Part shown: positions 51,783 through 58,990 of the stretch, piece after piece
Layout: every line of letters starts with the position of its first letter
How positions within the stretch are numbered: position 1 is the first letter of the stretch
Source: a virus
Virus record (IMG/VR): IMGVR_UViG_3300038427_000078
Length of the DNA stretch: 64,000 nucleotides
Strand: one strand, 5' to 3'
Translations under genes and position numbers: made by a program
The notes under the pieces: generated by a model
Seen by the model: the letters and a program-made list of their open reading frames with translations, nothing else
Database searches by the model: none
What the model was told of the DNA's origin: nothing

Positions 51783-52265
51783 ATGGCCTTCACGAACTGC
51801 ACAATCACCGGAACCTTCAAGGATCCCAGCGGCAATCTTCTGAACGGCACCTTCGAAGCTACTCCTTCCGGTGTCATGCAGAACAGCGGCGTCACGACCT
51901 CGCCCAAGACGATCAAAGCCAAAATCACCGCAGGAGCACTCTCTGTCAAACTCGTTGCCAACAACGACCCCGGTACGCTGCCTCTGACTGGCCCGAGCAG
52001 CCTTGACGGAACGACCACCTTTTACACCATCAAGGTCATGTTGGGCGGAGTGGTGCAGGAACAGTTCACCGTTTTCGTCCTCCATGAAAAAGAAGAATGG
52101 GACATCACCGAACTGCGCGAAAAAGCAGGCCAAGTCGGGATCGCTCCGAGTCAGCGTCAGCCGTTGACCACAAGGGCGACCAATCAGCAGATCGTTGAAC
52201 TTCTCGGCAACCTCGGTTTGTGTGAGGTCATTCAGATCCAGCCTCTACCCGGAGAACTTCCATGA
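51783..52265 (+). CDS. virion structural protein
   Basis: Late motif; ITGTFKDPSG...G beta-sandwich pattern. Confidence 0.65.
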   Translation: MAFTNCTITGTFKDPSGNLLNGTFEATPSGVMQNSGVTTSPKTIKAKITAGALSVKLVANNDPGTLPLTGPSSLDGTTTFYTIKVMLGGVVQEQFTVFVLHEKEEWDITELREKAGQVGIAPSQRQPLTTRATNQQIVELLGNLGLCEVIQIQPLPGELP

Positions 52266-53110
52266 TCGGCACCATCGCAGTCCGCTTCGACATCGGCCAG
52301 ATCAACAAAGGCGACACCGCCGAGTTGAAATCCGCGCTGCGGGTTGCCGATGGCGTGGTGGAAGCCAACGAAATCGCGTCCGTCACCTACACGGTCCAGC
52401 GACCGAACGGCATCCTCGAAGAGCCGGTCGAAGGTCGCATCGAACCAAATGGCGAAGGCTACTTCCAGTGGACCGAAACCGAAGAAGAAGGCAAATACAT
52501 CGCGCAGGCACAGTACCTACTCACCACAGGTGAGATTCGATCTTGCCTCGTCAACTTCACTGTTGAGGATCCCTTCCTCATAGACAACCAGCTTGAACAG
52601 ATTCTCGCAGAGGAGGTCTGGTTCAGGCTCGAAGACTGCTTCGAAGCTGTCGAAGGAGGCCCGTGGCTCCGCGACGAAACGCTGGCGAACTTCGATGAGA
52701 CTAAGATCCGTCGATTCATTCCCGAGGTACTGCTCGACATCAATGTGCAGTCGCCGTTGACCCGAGCCAGCCTTGGCGAATTCGTGTCGCTGGGTTCAAG
52801 CAACCCCAATCTTCCACTACTCGCCAAGGGCGTGCTCTGCAAGACGATTCAACACATGGTCCGTTCATACGCCGAGGTCGCCGTTCCAGTCGGCGGACAG
52901 GTTGTCTACGAAGAACGCGCGAACTACTGGCAGCGTTGGCAGACCATCTACAAGTCGGAGCACGAAGACTACTACACAATGGTCCGCCTCTGGAAGCGTG
53001 GATTCCTCGGATACGGCAAATCCGCTCTGCTCGTCAGCAGCAAGGCGGGTCGCCTCTTCTACGGCTCCGTGCAGCGCACCCGGAACGCAGGAAGGGGTGG
53101 CTATTACTAA
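52262..53110 (+). CDS. head-tail adaptor/neck protein with N-terminal Ig-like domain
   Basis: Synteny; RLEDCF...GGPWL...DIN...RSY.E...W..I. Confidence 0.6.
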   Translation: MIGTIAVRFDIGQINKGDTAELKSALRVADGVVEANEIASVTYTVQRPNGILEEPVEGRIEPNGEGYFQWTETEEEGKYIAQAQYLLTTGEIRSCLVNFTVEDPFLIDNQLEQILAEEVWFRLEDCFEAVEGGPWLRDETLANFDETKIRRFIPEVLLDINVQSPLTRASLGEFVSLGSSNPNLPLLAKGVLCKTIQHMVRSYAEVAVPVGGQVVYEERANYWQRWQTIYKSEHEDYYTMVRLWKRGFLGYGKSALLVSSKAGRLFYGSVQRTRNAGRGGYY

Positions 53111-53170
53111 TACCCTTCAACGGTTGTTACTACTGCTGCGTAATGGGTGGAAACTACCAAAGGAGGCTAT

Positions 53171-53590
53171 ATGAGTACCCGTGTCTGTAGCAAGTGCGGC
53201 GAAGTCAAGAACCTTGAGAAAGACTTTCAGAAGGGGAAGCGGTATCGGGGCGGATACTATGCCCAATGTCGCGATTGCCGTAAGAAGCATCCTTCGCAAA
53301 CCCCCGAAGCTAAGCTGTTGAATCTCTACAAGATTCGTCGGCGCAATCTTCAATTCGTTTGGGACTACTACAAGGCCCATCCCTGCGTTGACTGTGGTGA
53401 GCCTGATCCGATTGTATTGCAGCCGGATCATGTACGAGGCAAGAAGCTAGACGGCGTATCCAGGCTCGTACATAACAACCGCTCCTTGAAGGTAATAGCT
53501 GATGAGCTTGCCAAGTGCGAAATCGTGTGTGCCAACTGCCATGAACGGCGAACAGCCGTCACCCAAGGCTGGTACGCCGATGTTGTCTAG
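53171..53590 (+). CDS. HNH homing endonuclease
   Basis: HPCVDCGEPDPIVLQPDHVRG.K...ELAKCEIVCANCH. Confidence 0.9.
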   Translation: MSTRVCSKCGEVKNLEKDFQKGKRYRGGYYAQCRDCRKKHPSQTPEAKLLNLYKIRRRNLQFVWDYYKAHPCVDCGEPDPIVLQPDHVRGKKLDGVSRLVHNNRSLKVIADELAKCEIVCANCHERRTAVTQGWYADVV

Positions 53591-53954
53591 AATCAGATGT
53601 GGACCGACCGGATTCACGGTTCTCTTTCGAGAGGGTCATCCTCCAACGTTTTGTCAGCGCGTTACTGAGACACTTCCCATCTCTGGTCCGGGTAAGCTAG
53701 TTCTCAATCTCTTCGAGGAGTTCGGCACAGATGGTGTAGCCAACAAGGTCTGGAATCGCCTTGGTTACAACCCTCTAGTAGCACGCGGAACAAGGGTCAT
53801 CCGTTACATGCGTTATTTTGGTGGAGAGCCTTACTCGGAAGAGTACATGGATGTGAAGATAGTAGCCGAGAACGGAAGTGTGGAAAACGTAGGTTCCATG
53901 GAGGTCATCAGCCAAATCGAGCTAACGTATGCGGAGAAGAAAGTGGCCGCATGA
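53580..53954 (+). CDS. shortened tail-tube paralogue (124 aa)
   Basis: Colinear with tube gene 57919-58620: GFTV, FCQ.V, LNLFE.FG..G.A.KVW.RLG, PY.EEY, VG.ME. Confidence 0.78.
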   Translation: MLSRIRCGPTGFTVLFREGHPPTFCQRVTETLPISGPGKLVLNLFEEFGTDGVANKVWNRLGYNPLVARGTRVIRYMRYFGGEPYSEEYMDVKIVAENGSVENVGSMEVISQIELTYAEKKVAA

Positions 53955-53974
53955 GCGGATACTACTGATAGGCT

Positions 53975-54766
53975 ATGCCGCGTGAACCACTCACTAAGCC
54001 CCTCTACAAAAACGTCATCCGGTTCCTTGGTGACGCTGGTAGCGCGGCTGACATCCGCCGTCGTAGGCGATGGACGGGGCAGACGATGCGCCGCCTTGGT
54101 ACCCCTGTGCTCATCAAGCACATGTATACCATCGATGATGTCAAGAAGAACCCGACCGAAGAGGAAATCCTCAACGGGACTGCTGCTCAACTAAGCACCA
54201 ACTTTGATACCGCCTACGACCAATCGACCCACAACGACCCGTTCTCACATGGGGTGGGTTATGTATCGTGGGCCACAACGGAAGGACTCGAACCGCAGGA
54301 ATGGATCGCTCCTGACCCCAACGGACGCAAGCAGGCCAAACTCGTCCAAGGACCATACGAAGAAGGCTTTGTCCCGGCTCCGCTCTATCGCGGCTATGGT
54401 CCGGGCTACCTGACCTACGTCATCCTGCCTGACGCTCCGGTCGATGTGTTCAAGCTCACAGACGAGGGCGCTCTCATTCGCACACAGCAGGCTCGCGTCA
54501 ACCTCCCGTGGTACCCGGAAGTGGGAGACAACGACATCCTCATCACCGTCGAACTGGACGCCGCTGAGCGCATCATCAAAACGGGCACCCGTTACCAGTT
54601 GAAGAAGGTCAACCCGGTCACCATGAGGGGCCGCGACAGGCTGGGACGACAGGAGCTAGGACAGATGATCGAGGGCGGAGGTAACAGGTACCGAGTGGGT
54701 CAGTTCTGCGAAGCTAACAAGGTGCCCGAGACTGAGCCGATCTATGAAGTGGAGACAGATCGATGA
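53975..54766 (+). CDS. head closure/neck protein
   Basis: Synteny between adaptor and terminator; PWYPEVGDNDILI. Confidence 0.6.
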   Translation: MPREPLTKPLYKNVIRFLGDAGSAADIRRRRRWTGQTMRRLGTPVLIKHMYTIDDVKKNPTEEEILNGTAAQLSTNFDTAYDQSTHNDPFSHGVGYVSWATTEGLEPQEWIAPDPNGRKQAKLVQGPYEEGFVPAPLYRGYGPGYLTYVILPDAPVDVFKLTDEGALIRTQQARVNLPWYPEVGDNDILITVELDAAERIIKTGTRYQLKKVNPVTMRGRDRLGRQELGQMIEGGGNRYRVGQFCEANKVPETEPIYEVETDR

Positions 54767-55923
54767 GCGAAGAAATCGACACCAACCAGAAAGACCAGCT
54801 TAGCGAGAAATCCGGCTTGCAGCAAGTCACGCCACAGTATCTCCCGCAGGCCACTCTACAGTACCGCACATTCCTCAAGCGATCCATCACGGAGGGGTTG
54901 CAGAATGCGTTCGTCCAGTACGATGACGAAACACTAGAAGCGTGCAAGATCGGTATCGACTACCAGACCTCGCGCATCAACTTCCCGAACATCGTCGTCA
55001 AGTATTACGAGAAGTCGCTACAGAACGCAGGCGTGGGCCACAAAGAGTGGGGCAACAATGGTCAGCTTACCGAACTCATCGCGGAGGAAGTCACGATCAA
55101 CGCGGCGGAAGCCAAGCTCGAAAAACTCGCCAGCACCGAGCCTCTGGTCGCTGGTGAAACCACTGTGCGCGGACCGGGGATCCCACCGGAGACATTTGTC
55201 CAAGAGATAATCGACGGCACGTCCGTCTTCTTGAGCAACCACCCGGAACGGGACGTAGCCAGCGCTACGGTGCGGTTCAAATCGTACACGTCAGACAAAT
55301 ACACCGAATACCACCATTACCGCTACAACGGTGACATCTCGCTTGAGATATACGGCATGAGTTCCGCCGACCGCGACCGCGTGTCTGACGCCGTGGTGGA
55401 GGTTGTCGCCATGGGCACCGTAGGCGTCGAGGGTCGGAGCTTTCAGGAACGCCTCTACAACACCATCGAACAAGCCAGCTTCCCGTACTCGGCGTGGCAC
55501 TTCATCGTCGTCAATACAGACATCCTCACCAACTATGGCGAGACAGAGGAACTAGCGCCATGGATGCCCGAGGACGTGTGGCTCTACAAGACTGAGTACC
55601 GCTTCCCTGTGCAGGGCGAGTTCTACAGCATCACTCCGCTTGTCCCGGTGGCCGATCTTGCCCTCGTCAAGCAAGTGGATGTCCACCCGTTCCACGAAGA
55701 GCGCGAATCCGGACAGCCCATTGACATCATCCCGGTCGGGGTCGAAGACGATGTGGTCCACATGAAGACTCCGGAGGAATACCCGGATGAGGTCATCGCT
55801 CCCGCAGACTACCTCCACATCAAGAAGAAAGTCCGCAAAGTGGGTCAGGGCAAAGTGAAGTTCGAAGGATTGGAGGCAGGCTGCGGGTTCTCGGCCAGCC
55901 TGGTCCCGAGGTTCATCCCATGA
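54763..55923 (+). CDS. tail terminator/completion protein
   Basis: Directly upstream of sheath; FPNIVVKY...ISLEIYGMSS.DRDRVSD. Confidence 0.6.
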   Translation: MSEEIDTNQKDQLSEKSGLQQVTPQYLPQATLQYRTFLKRSITEGLQNAFVQYDDETLEACKIGIDYQTSRINFPNIVVKYYEKSLQNAGVGHKEWGNNGQLTELIAEEVTINAAEAKLEKLASTEPLVAGETTVRGPGIPPETFVQEIIDGTSVFLSNHPERDVASATVRFKSYTSDKYTEYHHYRYNGDISLEIYGMSSADRDRVSDAVVEVVAMGTVGVEGRSFQERLYNTIEQASFPYSAWHFIVVNTDILTNYGETEELAPWMPEDVWLYKTEYRFPVQGEFYSITPLVPVADLALVKQVDVHPFHEERESGQPIDIIPVGVEDDVVHMKTPEEYPDEVIAPADYLHIKKKVRKVGQGKVKFEGLEAGCGFSASLVPRFIP

Positions 55924-55965
55924 GAGAACTGATTTCTTGGTCGGTACTTGCTGGTAAATGACGAT

Positions 55966-56379
55966 ATGGATAGAGATTTTGGTCATTGGCTTGCTGGTTT
56001 CATTGATGGAGAGGGATGCTTCACCATCGTCAAAAATAGAGGATCCTGGCAATGCAATTTCGCGATATCCGTTCGGTCCGATGACGGTGCAATCTTGATA
56101 CAGGCCCGCGATTGGCTACAGGCCGGTCACATCTATCAGGCTCCTCGTAACCAGGGGCGAAATCCCATGGTCGAGTGGCGTATTGGCAGTTTAGATGATT
56201 GTTTAGCCCTCATCCAGTTGCTAGACGAGTGTCCTCTTCGAGCCAAGAAGGCAGCCGATTATCGAATCTGGCGCGAGGCCATATTTGCCAAACAAGAAAG
56301 CGACAATCGCAAGATAGGATCCCTAGCCCAAGTCCTCAAAGCAGGACGGGCTTACAAACTCGCGTCATCGCCTTGGTAA
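55966..56379 (+). CDS. LAGLIDADG homing endonuclease (single motif)
   Basis: WLAGFIDGEGCF...PLRAKKAADYRIW. Confidence 0.92.
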   Translation: MDRDFGHWLAGFIDGEGCFTIVKNRGSWQCNFAISVRSDDGAILIQARDWLQAGHIYQAPRNQGRNPMVEWRIGSLDDCLALIQLLDECPLRAKKAADYRIWREAIFAKQESDNRKIGSLAQVLKAGRAYKLASSPW

Positions 56380-56382
56380 TGG

Positions 56383-57897
56383 ATGAGATTCATGGCTCCT
56401 CACTACATCCCACCTGGCGTTACGATCACTGAGGCAGTACAGCCTCAGATTGTTCCTCTCGTCACATCCACCGCAGAACTCGTCATCGTCGGTCAAGCCG
56501 GAGGCGTCCAGACACGAACGGACCAGATCGTCGTGGGCAAAGCAGGTACGGAACAGGCGCTTCCCTACCTAGCGCAAGTCCCGCATACCAAACTCGTTGG
56601 CGAAAAACCGATCAAAACGGTCATCAACACCTTCCACCCGTCAGAACCGTCCGGTTCCAAAGGCAAAGGCTACAAAGAAGGCGAATCCTGGGAAATCAAA
56701 TCCGAAAAGTTCGTGAACAAGGAAGGGGAACACCCGATCCCGGAGGGCACCGTGGTCAGCATCACCTACACCTTCATCGCGGGCAACTACTACAACCCGA
56801 TCCGGCTCTTCGATGCTTCCGAAGTCCAGTCGCGGTTCGGTGAACCCATCGTCGGCGGCAAAGTCGCCTCTCCGCTATCCCTAGCGGCAACCAAGGCATT
56901 TGAAAACGGAGCACAGACAGTCATCTGTCAGCCGTTGTTCAAGACCTCATCCGGCTCGCTCGAATACAACCAGCTTGGCTACATCGTCAACGGTGAAGCC
57001 CTGACCGAAGAAGAAGCCGAAGAACCGACGCATTGGGCCACGACCCTACAGGCTCTCGGTACCGTCGAAGTCATCGACATCCTCGTTCCGGTCAGCGGCG
57101 TCGAAGAAGTTCTCGACAAGGTGCTCCAACTAGAGCAGGACCGGGCGTACGAACAGCAGTACGTCTTTGGGGTCTACGGGACCGACACAACGGTCACTGC
57201 GAAAACCGCTGCCGAAATCCGCACACTGGCGAAAGCTCTTGCAGGCTACGCGAGCGGTGCGTACTCACAGCAGAACATCCTCATCAATACCAGCAGCTTC
57301 AACGTCCGCGCTTCGCAGAGCGAAGAAATCCAGGTCGGCGGTCAGTACGTGGCCGCAGCCATCGCCGGTAAAATGGCTGGCTCACCGGCCTCACAGTCTC
57401 TCACCCGTCAGCCGATTGGCGGCTTCCGCGCTGTCAACGATCACCGCAACTCGTCTGAAAAGAACCTCGACGCCGAAAACGGCCTCATGGTCGTGGAGGA
57501 AATCAAGGGCGGATCCATCCGCATCCGCCACGGCATCACCATCGACACCGAAGGTGGCGCTGCCCGCTCTGAGGTATCCGTGGTCAGGGCCAAGTTCAAC
57601 GTCATCGAATCAATCCGTGAAACCCTCGAAAATCAGGTCATCGGCAAGATCATCGCTGACTCGAACTCTCCGGTCATCGTGCGCTCAGCCATCAGCGCTG
57701 TGCTAGCGGTGCTCGAAAGGACTCGCCAGATCGTCGGCTACAACATTCCGGAAGTCAAAGTGGCTTCTCTAGAACCGACGACTCTCGTCGCATCGTTCAG
57801 CTACCGTCCAGCCTTCACCGTCAACTACATCGACATCGTGTTCCAGCTTGATCTCTCAAGCCAGAGCGTGACCGTGTTCGAAGAACAAAAAGTCTGA
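56383..57897 (+). CDS. tail sheath protein (start may be 56392)
   Basis: YIPPGVTITE...RFG...SLAA..AFENGA...AAAIAG...SLTRQ...RIRHGIT...YRPAF.VNYI. Confidence 0.88.
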   Translation: MRFMAPHYIPPGVTITEAVQPQIVPLVTSTAELVIVGQAGGVQTRTDQIVVGKAGTEQALPYLAQVPHTKLVGEKPIKTVINTFHPSEPSGSKGKGYKEGESWEIKSEKFVNKEGEHPIPEGTVVSITYTFIAGNYYNPIRLFDASEVQSRFGEPIVGGKVASPLSLAATKAFENGAQTVICQPLFKTSSGSLEYNQLGYIVNGEALTEEEAEEPTHWATTLQALGTVEVIDILVPVSGVEEVLDKVLQLEQDRAYEQQYVFGVYGTDTTVTAKTAAEIRTLAKALAGYASGAYSQQNILINTSSFNVRASQSEEIQVGGQYVAAAIAGKMAGSPASQSLTRQPIGGFRAVNDHRNSSEKNLDAENGLMVVEEIKGGSIRIRHGITIDTEGGAARSEVSVVRAKFNVIESIRETLENQVIGKIIADSNSPVIVRSAISAVLAVLERTRQIVGYNIPEVKVASLEPTTLVASFSYRPAFTVNYIDIVFQLDLSSQSVTVFEEQKV

Positions 57898-57918: not shown

Positions 57919-58620
57919 ATGGCATCAGAATTCTTGAAATCCAGAGGTCGAGTCGGTGGTTCCGGCTTCACCGTATTCACCTTCGGCGGACAGCCAATCG
58001 CGTTCTGCCAGCAGGTGTCCTACACCAGCCCCCAGCCAGTCGGCGGAGGCGCTTCCCCTATTCAGCCGATGGACGAGCCGTACCCGGTTGAGATTATGAC
58101 GCCCGCCGCAGCAGGCATGGGCCAAGTCGTACTCAACTTGTTCGAGCTTTTCGGATCCAACGGCATCGCATCGAAGGTGTGGGACCGTCTAGGTCTATCC
58201 CTCGGTGCCGGGTTCAGCGCAAGCAACCCATTCGGAGCCAACACTCCGGAAAACCAGTCAACGAACTTCACCCTCACAGGCGAAACCGTCAAGAACGAAC
58301 AGAGCGCACCATTTGCGGGCGCTGTGGACATCGTGGACGTGTTCGTCCGTCAGGCACAGACCGAAGCCCACAAGCTACAGATCGTCAAGATCGTTCGCCC
58401 GCTCAACCCGAACGGACCTCCGGGTAACGCCGAAGTCCAGCCGTACACAGAAGAGTACCACGGCTGCGCGATCACGAACATTCAGGATGGCGAGCAGATT
58501 TCTGTCGGCACGATGGAAATCCTCAAGCAGATCACGGTCAACTTCTGCTACGTGACCCGTAACGGACAGACGAGCCTCGCGTTCAAACTCCGTAACGACC
58601 CACTAGCCGCTGCTGGCTGA
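57919..58620 (+). CDS. tail tube protein
   Basis: Follows sheath; RVGGSGFTVF...P.P...IQPMDEPYPVEI.TP...YHGC.I. Confidence 0.8.
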   Translation: MASEFLKSRGRVGGSGFTVFTFGGQPIAFCQQVSYTSPQPVGGGASPIQPMDEPYPVEIMTPAAAGMGQVVLNLFELFGSNGIASKVWDRLGLSLGAGFSASNPFGANTPENQSTNFTLTGETVKNEQSAPFAGAVDIVDVFVRQAQTEAHKLQIVKIVRPLNPNGPPGNAEVQPYTEEYHGCAITNIQDGEQISVGTMEILKQITVNFCYVTRNGQTSLAFKLRNDPLAAAG

Positions 58621-58648: not shown

Positions 58649-58990
58649 ATGGCTTTCGACAAGAAAGCATACATGAGGGAGTATCGACCAAGGTATCGTC
58701 AAGAACATCCTGAGAAGAATCGCGACTATCAGAGGAAGCGCGAACAGGAAAGACGCGATCTATTCGCGGATATCAAGACCAAAGCCGGTTGTGCTCGATG
58801 CGGATACAAAGACAACCCATATGGACTAGAGTTTCATCATCGCGACCCAAGCGAAAAGAGTTTCCCTATCGCTCATGGTTCCAAACGTTCCCTCAAAGCG
58901 ATACTAGCAGAGATTGCAAAGTGTGATGTCCTTTGCGGTACATGTCATTCTATCGTAACTCACGATCCGGAGGTTAGGTCAAATGTCTGA
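58649..58990 (+). CDS. HNH homing endonuclease
   Basis: CARCGY...LEFHHRDP..K...EIAKCDVLCGTCH. Confidence 0.88.
   Translation: MAFDKKAYMREYRPRYRQEHPEKNRDYQRKREQERRDLFADIKTKAGCARCGYKDNPYGLEFHHRDPSEKSFPIAHGSKRSLKAILAEIAKCDVLCGTCHSIVTHDPEVRSNV

Follow-up and report, generated by a model that had tools for sequence, protein, structure and literature searches.

Among the tube-fold accessory parts of contractile tails, gp3, gp48 and gp54 of T4 and Afp16 and Afp7 of AFP end or start the tube without elongating it, and T4 gp3 and the tube-like domain of Afp16 cap the finished tube. To our knowledge, other tube-fold paralogues are described only as fixed tail parts (terminators, initiators, Hcp).

In the tube proteins themselves, most of the ring-to-ring contacts are carried by a long loop (PMC9022992), and long-loop mutants of lambda and SPP1 are reported to be dominant negative (PMC9022992, PMC13581612). 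The tube is also bound by host immune sensors, in such a way that the hairpin is the target of Avs16 (PMC13581612) and the monomeric tube core is that of DSR2 (PMC10981675). A phage protein, DSAD1, stops DSR2 responding to tube monomers, binding a different conformation of the sensor domain (PMC10981675). With respect to mobility, the flanking DNA and the "cargo" of phage homing endonucleases are copied along with them (PMC10448857), and homing endonucleases promote the spread or amplification of anti-defence loci (PMC13096335).

The window analyzed here is a stretch of 64,000 nucleotides of the IMG/VR virus record IMGVR_UViG_3300038427_000078. The region under study covers the neck/tail genes of a large myophage that is a distant relative of the Bixzunavirus mycobacteriophages, and its gene order matches that of Alice (gp114, gp116, gp119, sheath gp120 and tube gp121), from which the endonucleases are absent. 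The window contains at least six HNH genes and one LAGLIDADG gene. The features of the region are the following:

52262..53110, + strand: conserved structural-module gene, 282 aa (phrog_2791, Alice gp114 family); left flank of the insertion hotspot
53111..53974, no strand: segment of 864 nt with the HNH and mini-tube genes, flanked by two conserved structural genes, which are directly adjacent to each other in many relatives
53171..53590, + strand: free-standing HNH homing endonuclease gene, 139 aa (phrog_2255)
53580..53954, + strand: mini-tube gene (ORF124), 124 aa, a truncated tail-tube paralogue
53975..54766, + strand: conserved structural-module gene, 263 aa (weak phrog_2806 match, Alice gp116 family); right flank of the hotspot
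54763-55923, + strand: 386-aa gene, between the 263-aa gene and the LAGLIDADG gene
55948-56379, + strand: LAGLIDADG gene, downstream of the 386-aa gene and upstream of the sheath gene
56383-57897, + strand: sheath gene, upstream of the tube
57919..58620, + strand: canonical tail tube protein, 233 aa (phrog_2756), parent family of the mini-tube
58649-58990, + strand: second HNH gene, after the tube and followed by the tail assembly chaperone and the tape measure

The identity of the 233-aa protein as the tube is clear, as its gene follows the sheath gene, its sequence matches phrog_2756, the family of the Bixzunavirus tube gp121, with E 1e-26, and its model matches the tubes of phage 812, AFP and pyocin in Foldseek searches. 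More than 400 tube homologues were found. The tubes of the clade conserve at least 50% identity among themselves, two relatives, L006 and L017, having 69-72% identical tubes, and 15 residues are invariant over 116 of them, four of which (P50, D52, E53 and P54) lie in the beta2-beta3 hairpin. This hairpin is present in 116/116 tubes, and the shorter tube of Alice keeps it too. It was also observed that the clade tubes (about 205-245 aa) carry a surface insertion of ~45-50 aa, roughly at residues 92-136, which is absent from the 155-aa Bixzunavirus tube and is modelled with low confidence in the tube monomer (pLDDT 40-55).

ORF124 is, from its alignment, a true paralogue of this resident contractile-tail tube protein, and constitutes a second tube-like copy ~4 kb upstream of the real tube, unlike the single copy next to the sheath. 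In BLASTP, its residues 1-62 aligned with residues 6-92 of the tube (39% identity with one 25-residue gap, E 2e-16), and its residues 83-117 with tube residues 174-209 (36% identity, E 8e-6). The central part of the tube (~93-173), main helix included, is missing, with ~20 aa in its place, the segment that holds the main helix being tube 93-158. A first-pass annotation of this DNA had quoted five matching segments between both proteins and the lack of a ~25-aa segment and of a central part; the five segments were all found in the alignment and both losses were confirmed, whereas its description of the similarity as end to end holds for the two aligned blocks but not for the last ~24 residues of the tube, which have no counterpart in ORF124. 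When ORF124 was searched against 1.84 billion representatives with phmmer, the only matches were tube proteins, at 1e-9 to 1e-10, and short tube-like proteins, and for this reason a chance similarity can be excluded. ORF124 matched no family at E <= 0.01 among the Pfam and PHROG profiles and gave no match by tblastn against 50,697 GenBank phages, nor in a scan of IMG/VR with the single protein, the same scan being also negative for the 282-aa protein. The syntenic gene of Alice, gp115, showed no similarity to ORF124, and a profile search of the whole Alice genome gave no match but likewise missed the known tube gp121, in such a way that it is uninformative either way.

The AF2 model of ORF124, for which an alignment of 46 tubes and mini-tubes was used as input, reached a pLDDT of 85.3 and a pTM of 0.77, with strands at residues 10-17, 20-31 and 38-47, a helix spanning 53-61 and another five strands. 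The protein is confidently predicted to keep the beta-sandwich core of the tube, an Hcp-like fold, with one short helix. In fold searches of the PDB, BFVD and the Atlas (Foldseek, VIA), nearly all the matches of the model were tail tubes or Hcp. The best match in BFVD was the tail tube of mycobacteriophage Spud, the tube clusters of the Atlas were matched at TM 0.52-0.62, and the best VIA matches were the monomeric SPR tube as held by DSR2, with Z up to 7.3, a modest value inside the common-fold range that partly reflects disordered loops in the matched chains.

As the first-pass annotation had proposed, the deleted segment is the stacking loop: the 25-30-residue deletion sits between strands 2 and 3 of the ORF124 model (E20-31 and E38-47), that is, at the beta2-beta3 hairpin or "long loop" of the tubes. 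Besides this stacking hairpin, ORF124 is devoid of the C-terminal arm and of the central insertion and the helix within it, and all three elements serve in the tube to join the rings or to decorate them. A non-stacking mimic is thus structurally reasonable, since the loop is the ring-stacking element and loop mutants of lambda and SPP1 are dominant negative. In the mutants of lambda gpV and SPP1 gp17.1 the stacking loop is disabled (PMC9022992), and in the mini-tube this occurs naturally, although those are siphophage tubes that retain all other interfaces, whereas the mini-tube has also lost the helix, the C-terminal arm and invariant residues. Its hairpin loss is then a natural counterpart of the loop mutants that poison tail assembly in lambda and SPP1. 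A predicted complex between tube and mini-tube scored 0.01, a value that counts neither for nor against binding.

Exhaustive phmmer and profile searches yielded a family of seven members, made up of ORF124 and six further short tube-like proteins of 130-169 aa, besides an extra 99% identical copy of ORF124. The mini-tubes are a small, undescribed family of fast-evolving tube paralogues. The hairpin deletion and the helix loss are common to all seven, which form one group in the tree (SH-aLRT 98). All 7 mini-tubes have switched at three sites with a conservation of at least 95% in tubes (F20 to L, L77 to E, K or R, and K203 to S); D190, E192 and G14 have been lost and P50/D52/E53/P54 deleted, while T18, F29, L72, W88, L91 and Y180 are retained in nearly every member. 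Twelve columns are invariant within the family, and the frames, of 124-169 codons, are open in the seven lineages with every indel in frame. At L77, a buried position beside the deleted helix, the change to a charged residue suggests a repaired surface rather than decay, and the charged site together with the new invariant serine are, as read in the alignment, marks of reshaping under selection, not of decay.

In the maximum likelihood tree, the mini-tube group was placed inside the tube subclade that holds the tube of the window. An origin inside the crown tube clade is not claimed, as the AU test keeps a sister position outside the sampled tubes (p 0.25). We conclude only that the tubes of Bixzunavirus type had already split off when the duplication took place. 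One of the members (P0123, on contig L012) is labelled in NCBI as a protein from a Thaumarchaeota MAG, but its 4.4-kb contig looks like the same phage group, with small ORFs and Phage_zn_bind_8, and the label is probably a binning artefact. A further protein of 210 aa (P0129) is made of three repeats, each with SRIRAGPRGFTV, a sequence similar to that of the mini-tube N-terminus; it was matched by ORF124 in phmmer with E 1e-4, and this match may be due to chance or to repeat DNA.

A profile search detected a mini-tube in 1/26 related IMG/VR records. Five of these records have a completeness of at least 90%, and of the five it was found in G003, 56 kb from the tube of that genome and on the opposite strand, and was absent from G006, G008, G011 and G013. 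These data show that the mini-tube is an optional gene and not a tail building block, and its patchy distribution away from the tube implies that it is not needed to finish every tail. The six other members lie on five distinct contigs (L009-L013 and L054), in accessory regions formed by same-strand arrays of small ORFs, downstream of thyX and of an RF-1-domain gene and with DUF4326, NADAR and zinc-binding genes nearby; no adjacent HNH or tail gene was found beside them on their contigs. Three mini-tubes overlap the upstream gene by a 4-nt start/stop overlap. The location in the neck/tail module is found only in the window lineage, of which the analysis covered the 64,000 nucleotides of the window, and a second mini-tube may lie near the thyX region of this phage.

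Compared with the tubes of the Bixzunavirus/phage 812 type (phrog_2756; Alice gp121, Spud tail tube), the mini-tube is homologous (E 2e-16) and has the same beta-sandwich/Hcp-like fold, but neither the hairpin, which carries the invariant P-x-D-E-P motif, nor the main helix nor the C-terminal arm is present; the mini-tube is also optional, mostly far from the sheath and tube genes, evolves several-fold faster and falls below the PHROG profile. It belongs to the tube superfamily by descent and fold, but lacks the features of a working tube (hairpin, profile match, single essential copy). Tube terminators, caps and initiators are tube-fold paralogues like the mini-tube, but they are universal, ancient and structural, whereas the mini-tube is sporadic, apparently young and usually outside the tail module, and thus lacks the features that define a terminator, universality above all. 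What is new in the mini-tube is that it is optional, fast-evolving and usually located among accessory genes, and that it lacks exactly the stacking elements.

The rate of evolution of the family was compared with that of its neighbours. In contigs whose thyX proteins are 76-80% identical and whose RF-1 proteins are 64-86% identical, the mini-tubes are only 27-48% identical. In the one close pair (P0128/P0131; L013:2039-2542 vs L054:267-776), the mini-tubes differ at 27/501 nt, with 19 aa changes, a dN of 0.066 and a dS of 0.027 (dN/dS 2.41), whereas the adjacent end of thyX in the same contigs shows 18 nt and 2 aa changes, with a dN of 0.022 and a dS of 0.27 (dN/dS 0.08), and the difference between both genes is significant (Fisher p 2e-7). 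A comparison of this single usable pair with strict neutrality gave a dN excess that is suggestive but not significant (binomial p 0.07). It was also noticed that the dS of 0.027 of this mini-tube pair contrasts with values of 0.27-0.35 in the flanking genes, and the allele may come from a recent exchange between phages or be under unusual constraint. Between the window and L007/L008, the single difference over 1,394 nt is non-synonymous and falls in ORF124 (N64D). The objections that the first-pass annotation had foreseen to its own proposal of a mimic fell away, as the gene is not universal and its frame is intact, with a dN/dS of 2.4 in the one usable pair.

We propose that ORF124 is a member of a mini-tube family acting as a non-stacking mimic of the tube subunit in some conflict, a reading to which we assign a probability of about 0.5. 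The mini-tube would imitate a free tube subunit without polymerizing, and would compete for something that binds tube subunits. If this target were the growing tube or the tube subunits, a lateral insertion or an end-binding without onward stacking would interfere with tube assembly or with its timing, mainly against co-infecting relatives. This variant, drawn by analogy, is supported by the existence of laboratory dominant-negative loop mutants, and we hold it as a tentative one. Surfaces for docking on a tube may have disappeared with K203, D190, E192 and a part of the N-terminal arm, which weakens the variant of a cap or poison, and the mini-tube would be co-transcribed with the phage's own tail genes in the window, in such a way that an unspecific poison would harm the phage itself. 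If assembly interference is true, the mini-tube would represent a new weapon in phage-phage competition.

That the target be instead a host immune sensor of tube monomers, against which the mini-tube would serve as decoy or shield, is possible but doubtful. In its fuller form, also a doubtful one in our opinion, the mini-tube would imitate the monomeric tube core and would either occupy a DSR2- or Avs16-like sensor or hide the tube from it, preventing abortive infection. The patchy distribution, with a mini-tube in 1/5 complete relatives, the arrays of small accessory genes around it in 5 lineages, and the dN/dS of 2.4 versus 0.08 for the neighbouring gene are in agreement with this explanation, and sensors of tube proteins are known (PMC13581612, PMC10981675), with homing endonucleases known to spread or amplify anti-defence loci (PMC13096335). 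The best VIA matches, which correspond to the SPR tube monomer held by DSR2, point in the same direction, but their modest Z of 7.3 is within the common-fold range and comes in part from disordered loops. On the other hand, Avs16 binds the hairpin that is deleted in the mini-tube (PMC13581612), and a permanently monomeric core resembles the form that activates DSR2, so that it could trigger the sensor (PMC10981675); moreover, a decoy made from its own trigger is, as far as we found, without precedent. A possible functional analogue is DSAD1, also a small accessory phage protein and an inhibitor of DSR2 (PMC10981675), although we found no report of its derivation from a tube, whereas the mini-tube is tube-derived. 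The more specific version, a hairpin-less decoy against a tube-sensing defence of DSR2 or Avs type that is spread by the homing endonuclease in this phage, appears unlikely. If tube-sensing immunity were blocked in this way, the mini-tube would belong to a new class of anti-defence protein, and, if the decoy is true, it would be the first case of an anti-defence protein that originated from its own trigger.

It could also be argued that the mini-tube has no function and is a passenger, a decaying tube duplicate carried by recombination around homing endonucleases. The family is certainly very rare, with seven members versus more than 400 tubes, it has no Pfam or PHROG match, and in the sole close pair dN/dS is not below 1. 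The base composition agrees as well, as the first-pass annotation was right in noticing a lower-GC codon style in common with the HNH gene: GC3 is 0.52 in ORF124 and 0.60 in the adjacent HNH gene, with 0.50 and 0.44 in the other two homing-endonuclease genes, versus 0.65-0.75 in the structural genes. However, a decaying copy would hardly keep frames of 124-169 codons open, with in-frame indels, in seven lineages that are 27-48% identical, nor twelve invariant columns with new residues fixed family-wide at tube-invariant sites, nor a confidently predicted fold; in addition, the divergence of the close pair (27/501 nt) is far under that expected from the dS of 0.27-0.35 of its neighbours, which argues that it is not drifting freely. 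We consider this explanation improbable, and leave a part of the probability to explanations other than those discussed here.

The proposal of the first-pass annotation that the protein could be a tube terminator, or another stoichiometric tail part such as a hexamer capping the finished tube below the neck, is very improbable despite its position in the neck/tail module upstream of the sheath gene in the window phage, its tube fold, as in terminators and initiators, and the lack of the stacking hairpin, which would suit a last ring, because it is absent from 4/5 complete relatives and from the junction in all other lineages, the other family members are outside structural modules, its 39% identity to the tube of its own clade is far higher than expected for an ancient terminator paralogue, its evolution is much faster than that of the neighbouring genes, and the tube-invariant K203, D190 and E192 have been lost. 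Neither of the two structural proteins encoded next to it nor the tube/mini-tube profile gave a significant match in searches of PDB sequences, and for this reason we put no name to the real terminator of the window phage.

Returning to the mimic of the tube subunit that we favour, its association with the HNH gene was studied. The start codon of the HNH gene is the ATG at 53171, preceded by AAGGAGG, and on identical contigs the gene callers predict the same 139 aa. The protein matches the HNH endonucleases of phrog_2255 (E 9e-31) and also phrog_3106 (E 6e-15), and the motifs DH...N...CANCH (His/Asn/Cys-x2-Cys) are readable in its translation, while the Pfam HNH profile gave no match at E 0.01 for the gene at 53171-53590. 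ORF124 starts with the ATG at 53580, 8 nt upstream of the HNH stop codon (TAG, 53588-53590), giving an overlap of 11 nt that confirms the one reported previously for the two genes, and the mini-tube appears to be translationally coupled to the HNH gene in the window lineage. Homology to the tube begins at codon 2 of ORF124, whose start codon arises inside the final codons of the HNH gene, and the overlap looks like a recombination joint that created the coupled start by chance.

The junction between the 282-aa and 263-aa genes (53110/53975) was compared with that of L006, L015-L040 and L056-L058. The layout with HNH and mini-tube was found only in the window and in L007, L008 and L055, all of them more than 99.9% identical. 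Both structural genes are separated by 2 nt in L006, and the junction is empty, with at most 21 nt, in 10 loci. In L023 and L056 this junction is occupied solely by a homologue of the window-type HNH, with 58-59% identity, and in L023 a spacer of 66 nt follows it up to the next gene; L057 has a different HNH type before the 263-aa gene. In 4 loci the junction holds 170-285 nt without a convincing gene, and in 9 distant relatives it holds a gene of 133-163 aa starting with MANIT.YL. No mini-tube was found at this junction in the other lineages sampled. This comparison of loci identifies the junction as a homing-endonuclease hotspot, colonized repeatedly by different types, and, as relatives carry the HNH there without a mini-tube, the HNH homes to the junction by itself.

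The mini-tube as cargo of a homing endonuclease, as had been put forward from the sequence of the window, holds for the adjacency and the 11-nt overlap in the window lineage but not for a co-occurrence across genomes, and a presence/absence linkage between both genes was contradicted by the HNH alone in L023 and L056 and by the mini-tubes without HNH on five contigs. We infer that the mini-tube normally lives elsewhere and was joined to the HNH once, as a secondary event in the window lineage and not as a property of the family. In this lineage, a cut by the HNH would lead, through gene conversion or break repair, to the copying of the mini-tube into relatives without the insert. The arrangement resembles that of the HEG-islands (Barth et al. 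2023, PMC10448857) in having a free-standing HNH at a structural-gene junction and an adjacent co-convertible gene, but the cargo of those islands consists of core genes that are essential, lie between endonucleases and are conserved in distant phages, whereas the window has a single optional gene linked to one HNH in one lineage only. The locus is a clean example of a structural-gene junction that is repeatedly colonized by different homing endonucleases and can capture an accessory gene.

With regard to the other endonuclease genes of the region, the LAGLIDADG gene (55948-56379) and the second HNH (58649-58990) are absent from L002-L005, relatives with a 98% identical tube, and LAGLIDADG homologues with 40-50% identity were observed at the matching spot in L019, L020 and L031. 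The idea that the two HNH genes flanking the tube-like genes derive from a duplicated cassette was rejected, as they have only the catalytic motif in common. In L055, which is 99.95% identical to the window, an extra HNH-type gene of ~650 nt (L055:2124-2774, at ~54738 of the window) was observed at the 3' end of the 263-aa gene. This insert is in frame and ends with a repeat of the last residues of the 263-aa gene, and it seems to bring a replacement C-terminus for that gene, in such a way that even near-identical genomes differ in their homing-endonuclease content.
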